This document shows, in pieces, positions 8,318-15,035 of a stretch of DNA of 30,553 bases (the first letter of the stretch is position 1; each line of letters starts with the position of its first letter). Source of the stretch: Clostridia bacterium (lineage in GTDB: Bacteria; Bacillota; Clostridia; Christensenellales; Borkfalkiaceae); assembly GCA_017503885.1 (NCBI GenBank), contig JAFVSF010000204.1:1-30553 (forward strand), given 5' to 3'. Position numbers and translations under genes: made by a program. The notes beneath the pieces are model-generated. The model did not search any database. It was not told the DNA's origin and saw only the letters and a list, made by a program, of their open reading frames with translations.

Positions 8318-8349
8318 ATTATATAAAAATAGAAACCTAATTGTTACCT
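8318..8349 (-). promoter_or_regulatory. Candidate late promoter, copy 3: AGGTAACA-N18-TATAAT (scaffold/capsid operon)
   Basis: AGGTAACA at 8349-8342, an 18-nt spacer, then TATAAT at 8323-8318. The same architecture occurs upstream of portal and terS. Confidence 0.65.
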
Positions 8350-8362
8350 TAGGTTTCTATTT
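8327..8362 (-). terminator. 14-bp perfect inverted repeat overlapping the upstream stop codon and the scaffold promoter
   Basis: aaatagaaacctaa (8327-8340) / ttaggtttctattt (8349-8362) with an 8-nt loop. The minus strand ends in a T-run (CTATTTTTAT). Confidence 0.55.
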
Positions 8363-9263
8363 CTTCTGTTACTGGAACGGGAGGCACATAGTCTAAATAC
8401 ATTTTAAGAATATCCGTTTTTCTCGTAATGTGATTTGCAACTGAAACTGTCATATCGTCATAACCATTGAAATAACTCATAAAGCTTCTTGCAAACATAT
8501 AAATTACTTTAAACAATACTCCAATTAACGACGCCCAACCCCAAGTAGTGATGTCTTTAATTACAATTAGCGACATAAGCATAGTAGATACGAGGTACTT
8601 AATAATTGACGAAACTAAAATACGTTTCTCCAATTCACTTTCGCCTCTACCGATATTCGTCGGGTCGCTAATATTTATGCTACTTAAAAGAATATTTACG
8701 TTTATTCCTTTAACTTTTGCTTTCTTTGCCAGTCTAATAGCTTTAATTTGTGCTTTAGTATATTTACCATCTATAAGTTCTTTCTTTGTCCAAGTTTTAA
8801 GAGCTGGATATTTTACGTCGTTTACAATAAATTCGTCGTTGAAATCGTCATAAGATATGCCTTCTTCTTTAAGTATAGACGTTCTTAAATTAACTAAAGC
8901 ATCTTCGTTATACTTTTCACAAAAAGGACCTAAATCTCTAATTTGTTTGCCGGATAAGCTATTTGCCAAATCACTGTAAGACTTGGCAATAGCTCCGAAC
9001 TTCTCAGTAGATTTACCTACGAATACCCCTTTTTTATACAAGTCCAAGGTAAGCAAAATCGTAGCAAGAAAGTAAGGTACCCAACTTACTACAAAGTCGC
9101 CTATATTCATAGTATTTAAGTCAATCAAATTAAATACGTCTAAACTTGCAAGAACTAACGCTGCTACTATTACAACTACAATAAAGTCAAAAGCAGATTT
9201 TTTAAGTTCCTTCATAGTTTGAGATTTTCCATATTGAATCGTATCTTCTACTGACTTTTTCAT
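8349..9263 (-). CDS. Integral membrane protein with ~4 TM segments, 304 aa
   Basis: Two hydrophobic pairs (FIVVVIVAALVLASL / FVVSWVPYFLATILL and ILVSSIIKYLVSTMLMSLIVI / WASLIGVLFKVIYMFA) flank a charged soluble domain. Confidence 0.7.
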   Translation of the reverse strand: MKKSVEDTIQYGKSQTMKELKKSAFDFIVVVIVAALVLASLDVFNLIDLNTMNIGDFVVSWVPYFLATILLTLDLYKKGVFVGKSTEKFGAIAKSYSDLANSLSGKQIRDLGPFCEKYNEDALVNLRTSILKEEGISYDDFNDEFIVNDVKYPALKTWTKKELIDGKYTKAQIKAIRLAKKAKVKGINVNILLSSINISDPTNIGRGESELEKRILVSSIIKYLVSTMLMSLIVIKDITTWGWASLIGVLFKVIYMFARSFMSYFNGYDDMTVSVANHITRKTDILKMYLDYVPPVPVTEEIET

Positions 9264-9697
9264 TTGTTATTTATTGCCTCCAATTTTTTAGTAGTTGTAA
9301 ATATAAAACCTACATGCTTAAATGCTTGAGCCTCCTGTGGTAAGAGTAGCTCTATTTGCTTATAAAACCTCTTAAATGTCAATTCGTCTACGCCTGTGGA
9401 AATCATAGTTGCTATACAAACGTATTTCATAGGCAACATTATTTTTTCCACCATTATTAACAAAATAAACATTAATAAGGACAATATAAATGCAGATGGC
9501 ATTTTCCATTTTTCTGCAAATTTATCCTTAAACAAAAGAAGTACTATAAACAACGAAAACATACCTGCTGCAGAAATTGCTGTGTCGGAACGATGAACGA
9601 AAAAATCTCCGCAACAAGCAAGAGTAACTATAGGAGTACCTATAGTCAAAGTTGTAGATACTCCTTTACATGTATTGTACTTCGCTACCTGTTTCAT
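9260..9697 (-). CDS. Membrane protein with ~3-4 TM segments (holin-like candidate), 145 aa
   Basis: Hydrophobic segments AISAAGMFSLFIVLLLF and AFILSLLMFILLIMV, with a basic C-terminus. It is ATGA-coupled to the next gene. Confidence 0.6.
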   Translation of the reverse strand: MKQVAKYNTCKGVSTTLTIGTPIVTLACCGDFFVHRSDTAISAAGMFSLFIVLLLFKDKFAEKWKMPSAFILSLLMFILLIMVEKIMLPMKYVCIATMISTGVDELTFKRFYKQIELLLPQEAQAFKHVGFIFTTTKKLEAINNK

Positions 9698-9698
9698 A

Positions 9699-10277
9699 TT
9701 AGTACCTCGGAATTGAACTCTTATTATTGTTAGTCACTTTTCTCACTTTTACTGCAGTATCTTCTACTACATCTTTAATGACTTCAATTTTTTCGTTCAC
9801 TTTTTTCCTAAGAATTTCAACTTCTGCTTCAAGAGATGCTCTCGTCGCAGTTTCAGCATATTTAGCATCCATTAAAATACCGTTCACATTTTTTCTAATG
9901 GTTTCGTCCTTAATCGTAGAATATACTAACGATTGAACCTCTAATACTGCGTTCATTTTTTGAACAATCACATCTAATGCATCATAAGTTTCCTTCTTAA
10001 ATTCCTCGAAGTCAGTTTGAACAGTTAAAAGTTGGTCATTTGTAGCTGCACTATTGTCACGGATACTAACTACGTCGCTTGCAATAGAAACTGCATTGTC
10101 CAAAGAAGATTTAAGTCCTTTGTTAGTTTCATTGTTAGCTTTGTTAGACTTTAATTGTTTTACCAACATAACTATAGTTGTCATAAATGCAACGAAGTTA
10201 CTTGAAGTGAAAAACAATACTATTTCGTCTTTGTTCAAAACAAACCAATTCCAGATATTTTGAAAAAACTCTACCAT
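9699..10277 (-). CDS. Membrane-anchored coiled-coil protein, 192 aa
   Basis: GGAGG RBS. An N-terminal hydrophobic helix (IVLFFTSSNFVAFMTTIVMLV) is followed by a long heptad-rich region. Confidence 0.65.
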   Translation of the reverse strand: MVEFFQNIWNWFVLNKDEIVLFFTSSNFVAFMTTIVMLVKQLKSNKANNETNKGLKSSLDNAVSIASDVVSIRDNSAATNDQLLTVQTDFEEFKKETYDALDVIVQKMNAVLEVQSLVYSTIKDETIRKNVNGILMDAKYAETATRASLEAEVEILRKKVNEKIEVIKDVVEDTAVKVRKVTNNNKSSIPRY

Positions 10278-10510: not shown

Positions 10511-10798
10511 CTACTCCATTTCAAATATTTCTTTTACTTTTCTACGGAGTGACATTATTTCCGAATTATCGTGAATATGATAACCTCTTTCCGATAGCAA
10601 TTCAAAAATAGTTTCTGCATGTTCATATTCTTGATTTGCAATATGCTCGATTTCCTCGGCATCTTCGTGCATTCCGTGAGATTTTAAGGACTCATAAAGC
10701 AAATTATAACTAATAACGTCATTAAGCTCTTCTTTTGCTTTTGAAATTAAATAGTTTAAGCACTCTTCGTTAGTATACAATTTGTCAATTTTTTCCAT
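10511..10798 (-). CDS. Half-ferritin (two-helix ferritin-like) protein, 95 aa
   Basis: Helix 1 is KAKEELNDVISY (EExxDxxxY) and helix 2 is IANQEYEHAETI (ExxH). This is one half of a ferritin-like di-metal site. Confidence 0.65.
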   Translation of the reverse strand: MEKIDKLYTNEECLNYLISKAKEELNDVISYNLLYESLKSHGMHEDAEEIEHIANQEYEHAETIFELLSERGYHIHDNSEIMSLRRKVKEIFEME

Positions 10799-10809
10799 AA
10801 TTATTTACC

Positions 10810-11151
10810 TCACATAATGTATCGCTTAATTGTTTGAATATCAGCTGCAGAGAAATGCATATCAAACGTGCTAGTGAATACTTTAAACGACAATGTAAAT
10901 TCGTTAGAACCCATGCCGTCCGTAAGTATTTTACAAAGTGCATCTACGTCTACGTTATCTTCTTTGTCAATAATATCAAACATAGATATGATTGAGTTGT
11001 TTTTAATCGCTTCAAATACTTTATCCGATTTATGATTTATTGCAGCTTTAGCAATTCCCAAAATTATTTTGTAATTACCTTCTGCTTTAGGCAACATATC
11101 ATTGTCAATAAATCTATAAATTGCTTTAATAAGTTGTTCTTTGTTTGCCAT
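10810..11151 (-). CDS. Hypothetical protein, 113 aa (middle gene of the accessory cassette)
   Basis: GGAGGT RBS and an intact alpha/beta ORF. It resembles a protein I recall next to the flanking genes in gut Firmicute phages; this is unverified. Confidence 0.7.
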   Translation of the reverse strand: MANKEQLIKAIYRFIDNDMLPKAEGNYKIILGIAKAAINHKSDKVFEAIKNNSIISMFDIIDKEDNVDVDALCKILTDGMGSNEFTLSFKVFTSTFDMHFSAADIQTIKRYIM

Positions 11152-11171
11152 ATTTTACCTCCTGATTTTAA

Positions 11172-11195
11172 TTAGGCGAGATTTCTCCCGCCTAA
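11172..11195 (-). promoter_or_regulatory. GAAA-tetraloop RNA hairpin inside the accessory cassette
   Basis: The minus strand reads TTAGGCGGGA-GAAA-TCTCGCCTAA, a 10-bp stem with one G-U pair. That pair is a mismatch on the other strand, which supports the minus-strand transcript. There is no strong U tract. Confidence 0.6.
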
Positions 11196-11202
11196 CCGTT
11201 AC

Positions 11203-11772
11203 TTAGTTACAACATCTGCCGCAATTAGGCAAAGGATTGTAAACGTTTTGTGCCGTAGTAGTGGCACCAGTGGTAATGTCTGCAACCATCTTAGGATAGA
11301 AAGTAGCATTCATATAAGTTACAATAGAGTTGTCTGCACAACAACGGTCGTCACGTTCTCTGTTAAGAGCCGCCATAAACTCGTTCTTGCAGCAAGCAAG
11401 TCTTTCACCTACAAGTTCGAATGCGTCCATCGTCTTTTGGTTTTGAACAGCTTGATTAGCAATAGACTGGTGGATGTTTTCAATTTTTCCATTAAAATAT
11501 GCAACAACATCACTAAGTTTTTGGTCTACATAAACTTGCGAATCGCGAAGAGAGAGTTGCTGTTTAAGAGAACCGTTTTCTTGAACGAGTCCCATTTCAT
11601 AACGATTTACGGGTTGATTTTCGTGACAAACGTTATTGTTGCCAAATAAACCGCCGAAAAGTCCGTTACCTTGAGAGAGAACTCCTGCGAGTGCTGCGCC
11701 GCCAAGTGCTGTGCCAGTAGCTGCTAAACCGGTAGTACCTCTACCTGCATAATTTCTTTCTTCCATTCTCAT
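11203..11772 (-). CDS. Gly-zipper / coiled-coil / Cys-rich protein, 189 aa (first gene of the accessory cassette)
   Basis: GGAGG RBS. N-terminal GTTGLAATGTALGGAALAGVL, a central coiled coil, CC pairs (ACCK, RCCAD) and C-terminal NCGRCCN. Confidence 0.75.
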   Translation of the reverse strand: MRMEERNYAGRGTTGLAATGTALGGAALAGVLSQGNGLFGGLFGNNNVCHENQPVNRYEMGLVQENGSLKQQLSLRDSQVYVDQKLSDVVAYFNGKIENIHQSIANQAVQNQKTMDAFELVGERLACCKNEFMAALNRERDDRCCADNSIVTYMNATFYPKMVADITTGATTTAQNVYNPLPNCGRCCN

Positions 11773-11831
11773 TGTTTTAATCCTCCAATAAAATTTTTAA
11801 TAGTTTGGAAAAAGTATTATAAAAACCTAAA

Positions 11832-11882
11832 CTAGCCCAAGGGAACCACCTCCTTATTAAAAACATTTATTGTTATAACAAT
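11832..11882 (-). promoter_or_regulatory. Cassette leader: 14-bp palindrome with an extended -10, then a strong SD and a TTG-GGC-TAG mini-ORF
   Basis: The palindrome attgttataacaat (11869-11882) contains TGTTATAAC. AAGGAGGTG lies at 11855-11847, followed by a 6-nt spacer and TTG GGC TAG at 11840-11832. Confidence 0.45.
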
Positions 11883-11883
11883 T

Positions 11884-12249
11884 TTATTTTGAAAACCAAT
11901 ATTGTTTTGCAAATGACTTACAATCATTTACGTATGAAAGATACGTTAAGTATTCTTCGTCATACTGATTAGCCGAACCTTTTCTCATAAGAGCAAACTC
12001 ATCGCCATAACTGTATTTAAGACTTACAAATGCCGATGCAAGTTCTTCATAACTTTTAATTTTGTGAACTTCCAACGTCAAATTGTACTCATAAACTTTT
12101 TCTACAAGTTCTTCGCCATTTACGTCATTTACTCGTTCAACTTCTACAATGTTTTCACAAAGAGAGAGTTCTAACTCTCCGTTTGGAAGCTCGTTAATTA
12201 AAAACTTCTCAGGCTGTACAGTTGATTGGGTTTTTGTTCCTACTTTCAT
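11884..12249 (-). CDS. Hypothetical tail-associated/chaperone-like protein, 121 aa (not Avd-like)
   Basis: AAAGGAG RBS; overlaps the RT 3' end by 41 nt. It has an acidic beta-rich N-half and a KYSYGDEFALMR...Y..Y...CK..AK C-terminal pattern seen in small fibre-associated proteins. Confidence 0.6.
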   Translation of the reverse strand: MKVGTKTQSTVQPEKFLINELPNGELELSLCENIVEVERVNDVNGEELVEKVYEYNLTLEVHKIKSYEELASAFVSLKYSYGDEFALMRKGSANQYDEEYLTYLSYVNDCKSFAKQYWFSK

Positions 12250-13309
12250 TTCTTATAATCTCCTTTAATTTATTTAAGTTTATTTTACCGTCAATGTACT
12301 TATTAGTTACACCGACGCTATTTGTATGTTGAATATATCCGTTATAAGAATAAAATGCATGTGCTCGTTTGCTAGTATACTTTCCATTAACTAATTTTCT
12401 ATAAAGTCTTAGCATTCTTAAAAATATACTTTTACGAACAATTATTTTATACCTATAAAACTTATATCCTACGAAATCAGTAAATCGCTGATTAGTGATT
12501 TTGCCTTTCTTATTGTCATACGGCATCCTATAAACTTGCCAGTTAGGTTTATAAAACAAGGAGAGAGGTTTCAAATATTCTTCCGAAAGAGTTTTAACTT
12601 TATGAAGTAAACGTTTATTTCCGCCATACATTACTACATCATCCATATATCTTGCCATGTACTTAACTTTCAATGTTTCTTTTACATATCTATCATATCC
12701 GGTTAAATAAAAGTTTGCAAGATGTGCAGAAGTATAATAACCAAGTGGAAGTCCATCACCTTTGTATGCATAAATTACTTTTGATAGCAAATCTACGATA
12801 CGCTTATCCTTAAACTTATTATGCAACATAGATATTAAAGTTTCTTTATTTATATGTTTGTAAAAGCCTTTAATATCTACTTGCAAACAGTACTTAGTAT
12901 TTTTAGTATCTTTTAGAAAGTGTTGAACGGAATACTTAGCATAGTGTGTACCTCTACCTTTAATAGAGGCACAACTATACTTGTAAAAAGACTTTTCTAA
13001 CAAAGGAGCTATTTGAAGCATTATAGCCCAATGAGTACATTGCTCAGGATAATATCTTGGCTTGCAAAGAGTTCTTAACTTTCTGCTCACTCCTTCTATT
13101 ACTGTATCTACATTGCCTTGTTCTAACTCTTTTGTTCCGTCTAATACTTCCTTTATAAACTTGCTTAAGTCTTCTGCATATTTATCGACGTCCGTCAATA
13201 CACGTTTAACGTCACGTCTATGTTGTTTTCTTTTAGAAGCTTTAAGTATAGCTTTCTTACAGTTCTCGATGCTTGTTATTTCTTCATGCTTTATTTTGTA
13301 TCGTTTCAT
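12209..13309 (-). CDS. DGR reverse transcriptase, ~366 aa
   Basis: RT motifs: KLRTLCKPRYYPEQCTHWAI, SCASIKGRGTH, YCLQVDIKGFYKHI, GLPLGYYTSAHLANFYL, catalytic RYMDD and DFVGY. It is adjacent to the TR. The likely start is ATG 13309, because the track's TTG start at 13354 lies in the structured spacer. Confidence 0.95.
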   Translation of the reverse strand: MKRYKIKHEEITSIENCKKAILKASKRKQHRRDVKRVLTDVDKYAEDLSKFIKEVLDGTKELEQGNVDTVIEGVSRKLRTLCKPRYYPEQCTHWAIMLQIAPLLEKSFYKYSCASIKGRGTHYAKYSVQHFLKDTKNTKYCLQVDIKGFYKHINKETLISMLHNKFKDKRIVDLLSKVIYAYKGDGLPLGYYTSAHLANFYLTGYDRYVKETLKVKYMARYMDDVVMYGGNKRLLHKVKTLSEEYLKPLSLFYKPNWQVYRMPYDNKKGKITNQRFTDFVGYKFYRYKIIVRKSIFLRMLRLYRKLVNGKYTSKRAHAFYSYNGYIQHTNSVGVTNKYIDGKINLNKLKEIIRNESRNKNPINCTA

Positions 13310-13339
13310 ATCAAAGTAGTCTGTATCTTTCTCTTTTGC

Positions 13340-13437
13340 CACACGCGCTTTCAATTTTTAATTTACTAACACGCCTTTGAATTCGGCAATATTTTCAGCA
13401 AGGGCTGAGGTTAAATGTATGCTAATTTTTCATTACA
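13340..13437 (-). ncRNA. DGR spacer (TR-RT) structured RNA segment
   Basis: The noncoding segment between TR and RT contains the hairpin TCAGC-CCTT-GCTGA (13408-13395) and a GCGTG-TTAGTA-[AATT AAA AATT]-GAAA-GCGCGT element. In BPP-1 the spacer 3' of TR is known to provide the priming structure. Confidence 0.55.
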
Positions 13438-13540
13438 GAGAATTACGGGCACCGTTGTTCCAGTTAGAATTACCAACGTCATTGTTCAAATTCCAATACC
13501 AAAGGCCATCATTATCGCCATTGTTCAAGTTGCCACCGAT
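13438..13540 (-). repeat. DGR template repeat (TR), 103 bp
   Basis: Aligns ungapped to the VR at 13631-13733 with 16 mismatches, all at TR adenines. It contains 29 A and 12 AAY codons in the VR reading frame. Confidence 0.97.
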
Positions 13541-13568
13541 GCATACAAGTCCCTAATTATTCAAACTG

Positions 13569-13609
13569 TAAGTCGACTTATAAGATACAGTAGGGGGAGG
13601 GCCCCCTAC
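13569..13609. promoter_or_regulatory. DGR retrohoming hairpin/cruciform (GC-rich 8-bp stem) plus an adjacent 12-bp palindrome
   Basis: gtaggggg-aggg-ccccctac at 13590-13609 lies 7 nt past the target stop codon. The palindrome taagtcgactta is at 13569-13580. Confidence 0.8.
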
Positions 13610-13616
13610 AACCCCC

Positions 13617-15035
13617 CTACAAAGACCTGTGAGAAAGACGGGCACCGCGGTTCCAGGAAGAATTACCAACGCCAAGGTCCAAATCCCAATACCAAAGGCC
13701 ATCAGTATCGCCATAGTTCAAGCGGCCACCGAAATAAGCCGTCCTAGCCCCTGCAGAAATGTAGAAGTAATCACAATAGTAAGTACTTGACGAGCCGCCA
13801 ACTTCAATAGGAAGAATAGCATCGTGATTTTCAGCATCAAAGCCTACTTCTTTTACGTAAGAATTCGTTTCTGCAAGTTTGTAAGAACAACGAATAAAGT
13901 TGCTGTTAGTTTCAGGACTAGTTGTATCCGTCCAATTCTCAAGGTTTTGACAAACATAAGGAACATAGTCCTTAATAGTTAAGTCTAAAATTTGTTTCCA
14001 AATATTTCCGTAAATGTTTTCAATCGTAAATACTTTAAACGAAGATTTACCTGCATTAGATGCAGAACCGGATGTTGCGACGATGCTGTCGGTATCACCA
14101 GTAAAGTTAGGTCTAACTGCAAGAGACGTAACAGAAACCGTAGGAGTTCTATCAAGTTCTACATAGAAACCTGCTCCATCGGTACCGGTAGATACAATTT
14201 TATAGTATTGTGCATTATCAGTAGAACCGTTTGCACAAACACAATACCCTGCTGCAAATGCGATTTGCTCACTCGCAAAATAGCATTTAGTTCCTGAAAC
14301 ACTCGATACGTTAATTGCATCTGTTTTATGACTGACAACACCGTTATAAATAGATTGAGAGTTTTTAGTAGCAGTCATAATAGTGAATAGCGGCTGTAAA
14401 ACCTCAGTAATTTCACTCATAGTGCTAATCAAATAGTATTCGCTAGTCGTATTTTCCAACGTATTATTCCAAGCTTTAGCATTGTTAAAGAATGCAGTTC
14501 TCGTTTTATTATGCGAAGGAATTTGTCCAGATTTAGATGCAAGGTATGAAGTACCGTCCATTGTTTCGTCAGAGCCTTCATAGCATCCGATGTCAACGTA
14601 ATTCCAATACGGTTGACCATTTCTATAAAATGCTTTAGGCAAATTGTAAAAAGAATAAAGTTTCTTTCTACATACCCAAATGTATTCGTAAGTTCCAAGC
14701 GTTTGTCTTGCTACATAAAAACGTTTGAACCTAGCAAATACGTTTCCGTGAACGTCGGTGAATTTTTGAGGGCTAAACAAATCAATATAGTCAAACGGGT
14801 TATCGTGAACTTCGCCAACGTTTGCCGTATAAGAAATGTCCCACGTAGAAATAGCACCTTTATAACGAGTTACTCGTTCACAGGCAGGAGAACTTGCTCC
14901 TTTTGTCCATCTAACGCCGTATTCAATATCGCTTTCAACTTTTCCACCTTGCGCATCAAGTAAAGATAACAAAGTTCCGTTAAGTTCGTCCATTTGGCTG
15001 TTAAATGAGTCGTCAGTTACTACTTTATAAGACAT
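13617..15035 (-). CDS. DGR target: receptor-binding/tail-fibre protein with a C-type-lectin (Mtd/FGE-like) C-terminal domain, 472 aa
   Basis: Contains IENIYGNIWKQI and ends GG......G...GLWYW.L......S.WN.GARLS, the typical CLec-fold DGR target signature. It contains the VR and has a GGAGGT RBS. Confidence 0.9.
   Translation of the reverse strand: MSYKVVTDDSFNSQMDELNGTLLSLLDAQGGKVESDIEYGVRWTKGASSPACERVTRYKGAISTWDISYTANVGEVHDNPFDYIDLFSPQKFTDVHGNVFARFKRFYVARQTLGTYEYIWVCRKKLYSFYNLPKAFYRNGQPYWNYVDIGCYEGSDETMDGTSYLASKSGQIPSHNKTRTAFFNNAKAWNNTLENTTSEYYLISTMSEITEVLQPLFTIMTATKNSQSIYNGVVSHKTDAINVSSVSGTKCYFASEQIAFAAGYCVCANGSTDNAQYYKIVSTGTDGAGFYVELDRTPTVSVTSLAVRPNFTGDTDSIVATSGSASNAGKSSFKVFTIENIYGNIWKQILDLTIKDYVPYVCQNLENWTDTTSPETNSNFIRCSYKLAETNSYVKEVGFDAENHDAILPIEVGGSSSTYYCDYFYISAGARTAYFGGRLNYGDTDGLWYWDLDLGVGNSSWNRGARLSHRSL
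13631..13733 (-). repeat. DGR variable repeat (VR) at the 3' end of the target gene
   Basis: Encodes FGGRLNYGDTDGLWYWDLDLGVGNSSWNRGARLS, whereas the TR encodes IGGNLNNGDNDGLWYWNLNNDVGNSNWNNGARNS. Confidence 0.97.

Follow-up and report, generated by a model that had tools for sequence, protein, structure and literature searches.

We describe here a small gene cassette on the minus strand of a 30.5-kb contig (JAFVSF010000204.1) from a Clostridia bacterium; this stretch, which we call the window, is one whole contig of a 1.8-Mb metagenome-assembled genome (MAG). The cassette consists of three short genes, G1, G2 and G3, encoding respectively a cysteine-containing coiled-coil protein, a small alpha/beta protein and one half of a ferritin-like bundle, and we found that its constant unit is G1 followed by G2, with an exchangeable third gene for which the half-ferritin is optional. 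It is well supported that the cassette is a real, mobile, horizontally exchanged and very widespread late-operon element of thousands of gut phages, the window holding the form present in phages of Bacillota. As for its role, the reading that we tentatively favour, with low confidence, is a late module that acts on the host envelope or is associated with lysis, and that works with an exchangeable cytoplasmic partner. The elements of the cassette in the window are:

11773-11883, minus strand: leader, the intergenic region 5' of G1, a gap of 111 nt with TATAAT at 11816-11821 and the ribosome-binding site (RBS) GGAGG at 11782-11786, without a recognisable -35 element (read from the sequence)
11203-11772, minus strand: G1, open reading frame (ORF) of 189 aa
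11170-11197, minus strand: stem-loop that separates the stop of G1 from the RBS of G2, GC-rich, with a 12-bp stem and a GAAA loop, without a clear U-tract (RNAfold)
10810-11151, minus strand: G2, ORF of 113 aa
10511-10798, minus strand: G3, ORF of 95 aa

An earlier sequence-only reading of this DNA had pointed out the three genes, their leader, the GAAA hairpin, the cysteine motifs of G1 and the E/Y/ExxH residues of G3, and each of these can indeed be seen in the sequence.

Conservation and spread of the cassette

To define the unit we looked at the genes downstream of G1 at 138 loci (cited below by their L numbers), drawn from IMG/VR and from species-level genomes, with the third gene scored in 133. 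A hidden Markov model (HMM) of G2 matched the gene directly after G1 in 136 of the 138 loci, which bears out the earlier claim of an uncharacterised, recurrent phage accessory cassette. Co-occurrence of the trio as a unit held for G1 and G2 and only in part for G3, since the complete pattern of metal ligands (E-x6-Y followed by ExxH) was present in 85 of 133 third genes and, in the species-level set, in 19 of 53. We confirmed 134 relatives of G1 in IMG/VR and 59 in one-per-species genomes. In the protein collection the homologues of G1 fall into 1,875 clusters (90% identity), all of them lacking both a Pfam domain and an informative name (a single cluster bears the stray label 'DUF917 family protein'), and the G2 HMM search returned 1,398 clusters at 50% identity, all of ~110-130 aa; longer or fused forms of G1 or of G2 were not found. 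The genome matches were mostly on contigs of 35-45 kb from bins of Oscillospirales, Christensenellales and other Clostridia, with a few on large contigs. Both temperate and probably virulent phages carry the cassette, in Bacillota as well as in Bacteroidota, and not every member of a lineage has it. G1 is the most constrained of the three proteins, with 45-57% identity across phages that otherwise have no detectable similarity and that range in GC content from ~32% to >60%, whereas the identity of G2 and G3 drops to ~20%. That conservation is much stronger in G1 than in the capsid and tail proteins of its carrier phages implies a strong general constraint, and the distribution as a whole fits a function independent of virion and host phylum.

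The organization of the operon is conserved as well. In the window the hairpin between G1 and G2 has a folding energy of -17.2 kcal/mol (z = -4.8, RNAfold), and at the equivalent place, after the stop codon of G1 and ahead of the RBS of G2, 30 of 33 diverse loci likewise have a GC-rich hairpin, of unrelated sequence. The conservation of this intercistronic hairpin leads us to infer that G1 is produced in larger amounts than the products of the genes 3' of it, the hairpin presumably working as an attenuator or stabiliser that raises G1 above G2 and G3. At the other end, a terminator-like hairpin follows the third gene in 14 of 31 loci. Directly 5' of G1, 99 of 130 loci have a gene of 72-91 aa encoding a helix-turn-helix (HTH) domain and nothing else, which is missing in the window and in its close relatives L001-L004; in L066 its product matches Pfam GerE (E 7e-13) and in others it weakly resembles sigma-70 region 4. 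Many loci also have a -10-like element and a short palindrome with a GC core 20-37 nt before the G1 start. Perfect palindromes of at least 10 nt occur in the 5' untranslated region of 8 of 31 loci, compared with 2.9 +/- 1.5 in shuffles, a moderate enrichment, and with one mismatch allowed there was no difference from shuffles. Such GC-core palindromes, for example AGGTGGCCACCT, TTCCGGGCCCGGAA and AAGTCGCGACTT, lie between the -10-like element and the G1 RBS in L065, L074, L090, L095, L096, L099, L100, L106, L124 and L135, and could be operators for the GerE-like HTH protein.

Homologous cassettes with a shared gene order were found in the late or tail regions of phages of Bacteroides, namely gp61-gp58 of p-crAssphage (Carjivirus communis), gp88-gp91 of cr118_1 and gp40-gp36 of BF1-TP2, a cultured phage of B. 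fragilis. The proteins gp61, gp59 and gp58 of p-crAssphage, and gp40, gp37 and gp36 of BF1-TP2, match respectively the HMMs of G1, G2 and DUF7841. For G1, the match of BF1-TP2 gp40 has an E-value of 4.5e-9, with the N-terminus YASKGV-NAGL-GIIGTALG in common; for G2, that of p-crAssphage gp59 has E 8e-9, and cr118_1 gp90 was matched by Foldseek too; p-crAssphage gp58 matches DUF7841 in Pfam with E 9.8e-38, and DUF7841 proteins are found in many crAss-like genomes. This form of the cassette (G1, coiled-coil protein, G2, DUF7841) differs from that of the window in having an additional acidic coiled-coil gene between G1 and G2, and DUF7841 in the place of the half-ferritin. With gp88 of cr118_1 as query, tblastn returned 28 records, p-crAssphage and BF1-TP2 among them, and did not detect the cassette in the cultured phage crAss001. 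The gene order in cr118_1 is a protein with multiple transmembrane (TM) segments, a TM and coiled-coil protein, gp88, gp89, gp90 and gp91, and the cr52_1 counterpart of this TM and coiled-coil protein is annotated as LysB/FtsL-like. In p-crAssphage the cassette is located between gp62/63 and gp55/54, with the multi-TM protein gp57 3' of it, and in cr52_1 the genes before the block encode an Mtd-like tail protein and then a reverse transcriptase, in the same order as in the window.

A related case is L139, a 97-kb contig (CAZQDA010000001.1) labelled Christensenella, crAss-like in both size and gene content, which is probably a crAss-like phage genome mis-binned with a Christensenella MAG. Its G1 is canonical (HMM 3.7e-57) and 38.8% identical to cr118_1 gp88 over 85 residues (E 1.3e-17), the next gene matches cr118_1 gp89 (E 1.7e-11), and G2-like and DUF7841-like genes follow. 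In the p-crAssphage record the G1 homologue gp61 (L145, BK010471.1 65695-66468) is annotated as 'putative tail protein', as are the homologues in cr85_1, cr106_1 and cr111_1; for gp61 this label appears to rest on position only. Several late genes of cr52_1 (L144, gp20-gp25) contain in-frame stops under translation table 11, which fits the reported recoding of stop codons in late and lysis genes of crAss-like phages. In the literature we found no paper that mentions DUF7841, BF1-TP2 or crAssphage gp61, and a review of Crassvirales is silent on this block.

The conserved core and the exchangeable third slot

The N-terminal segment of G1 (~residues 12-46) is rich in glycine and alanine and weakly hydrophobic, with a 19-residue Kyte-Doolittle mean of ~1.0-1.2, and cr52_1 gp23, a distant homologue from Crassvirales, is plainly hydrophobic at the matching position (WWWIWIILIFF). 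An AlphaFold2 model built on a 71-sequence alignment (mc9ec7176d068) showed a single continuous helix from residue 57 to 158, with a predicted local distance difference test score (pLDDT) of 80-94, preceded by a low-confidence N-terminal helix at residues 15-32 and followed by an unmodelled C-terminus. It is this C-terminal region that is near-invariant in the family (RCCxDN-IVxY-NATFYPK-VAD-TxGT-TTAQ-YNPLP), before a variable cysteine-rich tail. The window protein contains the cysteine motifs ACCK, RCCAD and NCGRCCN, and the RCC and C-G-x-C-C motifs are conserved. We rejected G1 as a lipoprotein, given that the stretch before Cys49 is rich in glycine and asparagine and has no lipobox, and that Cys49 is missing in one subgroup. 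The G1 family had no match in Pfam, PHROGs, PADLOC, NCBIfam, the PDB (searched with the G1 profile) or the named clusters of the Atlas.

G2 is acidic and of alpha/beta type, has neither a signal peptide nor a TM segment, and shows a conserved loop D-E-x-G-x-[VI]-D-[VI]-[DE]. Its AlphaFold2 model (ma94f3c8f0ce0, pLDDT 88.6) found no matching fold in the PDB (best Foldseek E 0.67, best Z 4.3 in the wide VIA-align search), a PDB search with the G2 profile gave only E 0.035 to a designed calcium-binding protein, and its matches in BFVD and the Atlas were exclusively uncharacterised phage proteins, two of them from crAss-like phages. G2 had no match in Pfam, PADLOC or NCBIfam, and PHROGs, searched with all members of the G1 and G2 alignments, gave none for either family.

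G3 is acidic, with candidate metal ligands E24, E57 and H60 together with Y31 (E24-x6-Y31 and E57-x2-H60). In Pfam its matches to Rubrerythrin, Ferritin and Coat_F were all below cut-off (Rubrerythrin, PF02915, 20.7 bits against 22.8; Coat_F 17.8 bits against 25.7), while its relative in L098 reaches 24.5 bits for Rubrerythrin and is above it. A profile of 29 sequences of the G3 family matched chains of sulerythrin, rubrerythrin, symerythrin and bacterioferritin, with E-values down to 2e-6, and aligned separately to each half of the bundle; since it aligns to both halves, G3 corresponds to one helix-loop-helix half of a ferritin-like bundle, and the earlier description of G3 as a half-ferritin is upheld. 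Its 95 residues hold a single E/ExxH pair rather than the two pairs of a four-helix bundle in one chain, and, judging from sequence, G3 would be a half-domain needing dimerisation for a complete bundle. Matches of G3 to pentatricopeptide (PPR) proteins in the PDB were sums of weak repeats and were discarded. Gut phages named 'Gratiaviridae' carry ferritin-like Dps and Mn-catalase, read as protection from oxidative stress (PMC8008677), and these belong to families different from G3.

The third slot is far more variable than the core. The half-ferritin HMM matched the third gene in 93 of 133 loci. Six close-to-moderate relatives of G3 all keep the E/Y/ExxH residues, and the ligands are missing in a group of 91-102-aa third-slot proteins that lack ExxH and are nevertheless homologous to the half-ferritins (hhalign 95.9%, E 5.6e-9). 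In ~20 loci the slot is taken by DUF7841 (PF25223, E ~1e-22), which we considered as a diverged half-ferritin and rejected (hhalign 0.2%) and whose profile had no match in the PDB. Four loci have instead a protein of 184-194 aa for which likeness to ferritins could not be shown, and a PDB profile search with this 189-aa class gave no match; that the third genes of L073 and L135 are full-length ferritins was likewise rejected, on a single weak Pfam match (E 0.025) and 0.2% in hhalign. As G3 is replaced by DUF7841 or other proteins in many lineages, a di-iron centre cannot be the core of the system.

A possible envelope or lysis role and its rivals

The cassette sits at module boundaries of the phage genomes, recurrently near genes for holins, endolysins or the end of the tail module. 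It comes after tail fibres in L098, L100 and L115, with an Amidase_3 endolysin 566 nt downstream in L098; in L103 it is flanked by a GH25 endolysin gene, which it follows, and an integrase gene, which it precedes, and GH25 genes are located 0.9-2.3 kb upstream in L103, L104, L108 and L138. In L073 the order is GH25 endolysin, Hol44 holin, HTH gene and cassette, and in L129 a Phage_holin_4_1 gene is directly upstream, at a prophage end adjoining host genes. Elsewhere the cassette precedes the large terminase (L087, L091), follows giant proteins of 1,800-2,350 aa (L066, L092, L101) or, in the L005 group, comes after early-type genes and is convergent with the late operon. In the window, the order on the minus strand is terminase (Terminase_6N), portal (phrog_156), three unknown genes, a 472-aa tail protein (phrog_5302), reverse transcriptase (RVT_1, phrog_1423), a 121-aa gene, the trio, a 77-aa gene, three proteins of TM or coiled-coil type and the capsid block. 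The late motif of this phage, AGGTAAYA-N18-TATAAT, is present in the window only at 8318, 18976 and 22079, which places the trio inside the portal-to-tail transcription unit, and this, together with the three TM/coiled-coil proteins 3' of it, supports a late context.

We favour, tentatively, a late envelope-acting or lysis-associated module because of the architecture of G1, its inferred abundance, its independence of virion type and host phylum, and the recurrence of holin, endolysin and tail-end neighbours. The glycine-rich N-terminus of G1 would anchor in or insert into the membrane, the coiled coil would form a stalk of ~15 nm, and the conserved C-terminus, with its 3-6 cysteines, would form a knob that probably folds only in the oligomer. 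Made in stoichiometric amounts, G1 could be a membrane effector on the host envelope at the end of the lytic cycle, an accessory for the timing of lysis or for envelope disruption, while G2, presumably a small cytoplasmic protein, and the third protein may be cytoplasmic regulators or chaperones. Where the third protein is a half-ferritin, two copies should come together as a four-helix bundle around a di-metal site that they share, and in the phage of the window it could add an input from iron, oxygen or redox state. Several observations weigh against such a role. G1, G2 and G3 had no match to any holin, spanin, endolysin or antiholin family in Pfam, PHROGs or NCBIfam, and with the limited set of seeds used, only 9 of 138 loci had a recognised endolysin at a distance of up to 6-8 kb. 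In the largest group, that of L005, the cassette is preceded by early-type genes and regulators of HTH type and not by lysis genes, the N-terminus of G1 is weakly hydrophobic, so that its TM anchor remains putative, and phages with the cassette usually own ordinary holins. Lysis also does not explain the GerE-like regulator, the cysteine clusters or the metal centre.

Other readings were considered as well. The cassette might be a moron that raises host fitness under iron or oxidative stress in anaerobic hosts, with G3 as a mini di-iron ferroxidase or peroxidase and the cysteines of G1 as a rubredoxin-like or Fe-S electron-transfer or iron site, in what would be a split rubrerythrin-like system. 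G3 is erythrin-like and its ligands are intact in the window, the RCC and C-G-x-C-C motifs of G1 are kept, the Dps and Mn-catalase of gut phages offer a precedent (PMC8008677), and moron-type positions by integrases and prophage ends are frequent (L103, L130, L129). We nevertheless consider this iron-centred reading unlikely, and weakened because the ligand-bearing gene is lost and replaced: ligands are missing in ~40% of third genes overall and in ~60% in the species-level set, ligand-less homologues exist and the unrelated DUF7841 takes the place of G3; the invariant G1 and G2 show no similarity to any redox protein, and Cys49 of G1 is absent from a whole subgroup. The sites near integrases and prophage ends, the variable third slot next to a conserved core, the promoter-like leader and, in many loci, the cassette's own terminator would suit membrane superinfection exclusion, defence or counter-defence, in which G1 would be a barrier at the surface or membrane and the third gene the specificity or sensor part. 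This, too, we regard as improbable: none of the three proteins has a match in PADLOC, the conservation of G1 is far above what is usual for such proteins, and the cassette is found in crAss-like phages, which are not known as temperate, and, in the window as in p-crAssphage, inside operons of late structural genes. A component of the virion or tail, as the 'putative tail protein' annotation of gp61 suggests, has about the same low plausibility; G1 would then be a coiled-coil trimer, either a fibre or a protein for membrane penetration, whose foldon-like knob is stapled by metal or disulfides, and G2 and G3 its assembly chaperones. The cassette is indeed among tail genes in the window (after a tail protein diversified by a diversity-generating retroelement), in p-crAssphage, L098, L100 and L115, the long helix with its unmodelled conserved C-terminus is reminiscent of fibres whose folding requires oligomerisation, and the hairpin implies structural amounts of G1. 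Docking to the virion is hard to reconcile with these data because G1 is conserved across unrelated virions, sipho-like and crAss-like, with its 45-57% identity where capsid, portal and tail proteins share nothing detectable; moreover, L005-like and L087/L091 phages have the cassette elsewhere than in the tail module, it was not detected in cultured crAss001, and the 'tail protein' label of gp61 is apparently positional only.

The idea that had been put forward from the letters of the window, a role in sporulation or the spore coat, would have a GerE-type regulator driving, in the mother cell, a cysteine-rich cross-linkable protein and a CotF-like ferritin fold. It draws on the GerE- or sigma-region-4-like HTH gene directly 5' of most cassettes, on the weak Coat_F match of G3, and on the sporulation genes of the hosts, SpoIVA being encoded in the MAG of the window, together with Spo0A, and in 4 of 5 other host bins. 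One of the loci, L103, is in a bin labelled Akkermansia muciniphila, and this bin is probably mislabelled or contaminated, because it encodes SpoIVA. The spore reading, in our view very unlikely, is weakened above all by the homologous cassettes in phages of Bacteroides (p-crAssphage, BF1-TP2, cr118_1), whose hosts do not sporulate; in addition the Coat_F score stays below its cut-off, CotJA- and CotJB-like partners are absent, the window has no HTH gene, and small LuxR-type HTH proteins are common as phage regulators. Least probable of all, we think, is an operon for a precursor of a ribosomally synthesised and post-translationally modified peptide or bacteriocin, with G1 as the abundant precursor, its variable cysteine-rich C-terminal tail as the product and the hairpin as an attenuator before accessory genes. 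The grammar of the operon (structural gene, attenuator hairpin, small accessory genes) and a variable cysteine-rich extreme C-terminus behind a conserved, recognition-like segment are compatible with it, but no family of maturation enzyme, protease or transporter is present, G2 and G3 are small and do not look enzymatic, and the conserved coiled coil is unlike a leader.

Returning to the envelope, a bolder form of the favoured reading, which we find rather doubtful, is that G1 and G2 are a new envelope system of gut phages at large, carried by Bacillota and Bacteroidota phages, crAssphage among them: a coiled-coil protein, abundant, anchored in the membrane and stapled at its tip by cysteines or metal, would control or execute host exit or entry exclusion, tuned to redox, iron or another signal by the swappable cytoplasmic partner. 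If true, this would be a mechanism of lysis or exit outside the scheme of holin, endolysin and spanin. Whatever their role, G1 and G2 are two very large families for which we found no Pfam or PHROG family and no paper, in an operon conserved in phages of both dominant gut phyla. Their function, once known, would give meaning to a set of 'hypothetical' genes that a large part of gut viromes contains and, should the 'tail protein' label of the crAssphage records be wrong, would put it right. As BF1-TP2 is a cultured carrier, the function is directly testable.

Surroundings in the window and comparison with known systems

In the window the cassette is bounded on its 5' side only. The earlier view that it is self-contained is right for the leader and not for the 3' end, where the next gene begins 6 nt past the G3 stop with no terminator detected between them. 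A scan of the leader (11773-11883) for consensus promoters gave nothing exceeding chance, and the possibility that the leader is one of the AGGTAAYA-N18-TATAAT late promoters was ruled out, as the motif has no match there. Upstream of TATAAT, at 11832-11854, the leader contains a strong RBS, AAGGAGG, with a minimal ORF, TTG GGC TAG; the leader of L001 shares this element as TTG GGC TAA, and the version of L098 is AAGGAGG-N6-ATG GGC TTT ACA TAT TGA. GC content at 11200-11800 shows G1 at ~40% compared with 31-33% in the flanking genes, G2 and G3 included, which may reflect glycine and alanine content or strong conservation rather than recent acquisition. A blastn search of the region against phage records gave nothing.

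The genes on either side, the 121-aa and the 77-aa gene, had been called tail-chaperone-like; neither has a match in Pfam, NCBIfam, PHROGs or PADLOC. A diversity-generating retroelement immediately precedes the cassette, at 12209-15035; its reverse transcriptase is the RVT_1/phrog_1423 protein, and a short ORF at 13433-13528 echoes the C-terminus of the 472-aa tail protein and resembles a pair of variable and template repeats. The Avd-type accessory of such elements is a small basic helical protein beside the reverse transcriptase, needed for retrohoming, and G1, G2 and G3 are all acidic; the cassette follows a reverse transcriptase in the window and in cr52_1, and at most cassette loci there is none nearby. 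On the 3' side, at 8349-10277 of the minus strand, are proteins of 192 aa (N-terminal TM segment and coiled coil), 145 aa (multiple TM segments) and 304 aa (TM segments, with a weak SLATT_4 match, E 0.003), and these three may be the holin or lysis genes of the phage. Family searches recognised no endolysin domain among the proteins of the window.

Among known systems, the encapsulin-associated ferritin EncFtn is, like G3, a two-helix half-ferritin with a di-iron site that forms only on oligomerisation, it has the E-x6-Y and ExxH pattern in common with G3, and EncFtn-like clusters are among the distant language-model neighbours of G3. Membership of that family, which the sequence-only reading had named for comparison, is not supported: G3 scores 15.2 bits for TIGR04535 against a cut-off of 125, PF22277 is not among its Pfam matches, and the PDB match to EncB has E 0.1. 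G3 also has as neighbours G2 and the 77-aa protein, with no encapsulin family among the proteins of the window, and lacks a Gly/Leu-rich C-terminal tag or cargo-loading peptide. In sequence it is nearer the erythrins (rubrerythrin, sulerythrin and symerythrin, PF02915), with which it shares the E ... ExxH helix-loop-helix motif and a conserved tyrosine; it differs from them in being one half-domain of ~60 residues plus a short C-terminal helix, without a rubredoxin domain, and in that many proteins at the orthologous position have no ligands. As for sporulation genes, the CotF/CotJ operon is not matched, Coat_F being below threshold and G1 and G2 without Pfam match. The upstream gene of 72-91 aa is, like B. 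subtilis GerE and other LuxR-type stand-alone regulators, an HTH alone, but several of these HTHs score weakly and nothing ties them to sigma-K-dependent coat genes.

The phage lysis proteins lambda Rz, an i-spanin, and the T4 holin T with RI and RIII combine an N-terminal membrane segment with a large coiled-coil or cysteine-containing ectodomain. G1 has no sequence or profile similarity to Rz or T4 T and no lipoprotein partner, and monoderm hosts, the majority here, need no spanins. The likeness would be one of analogy, in the putative N-terminal anchor, the long coiled coil, the cysteines, the holin and endolysin neighbours and the small soluble partners that G1 appears to share with them.

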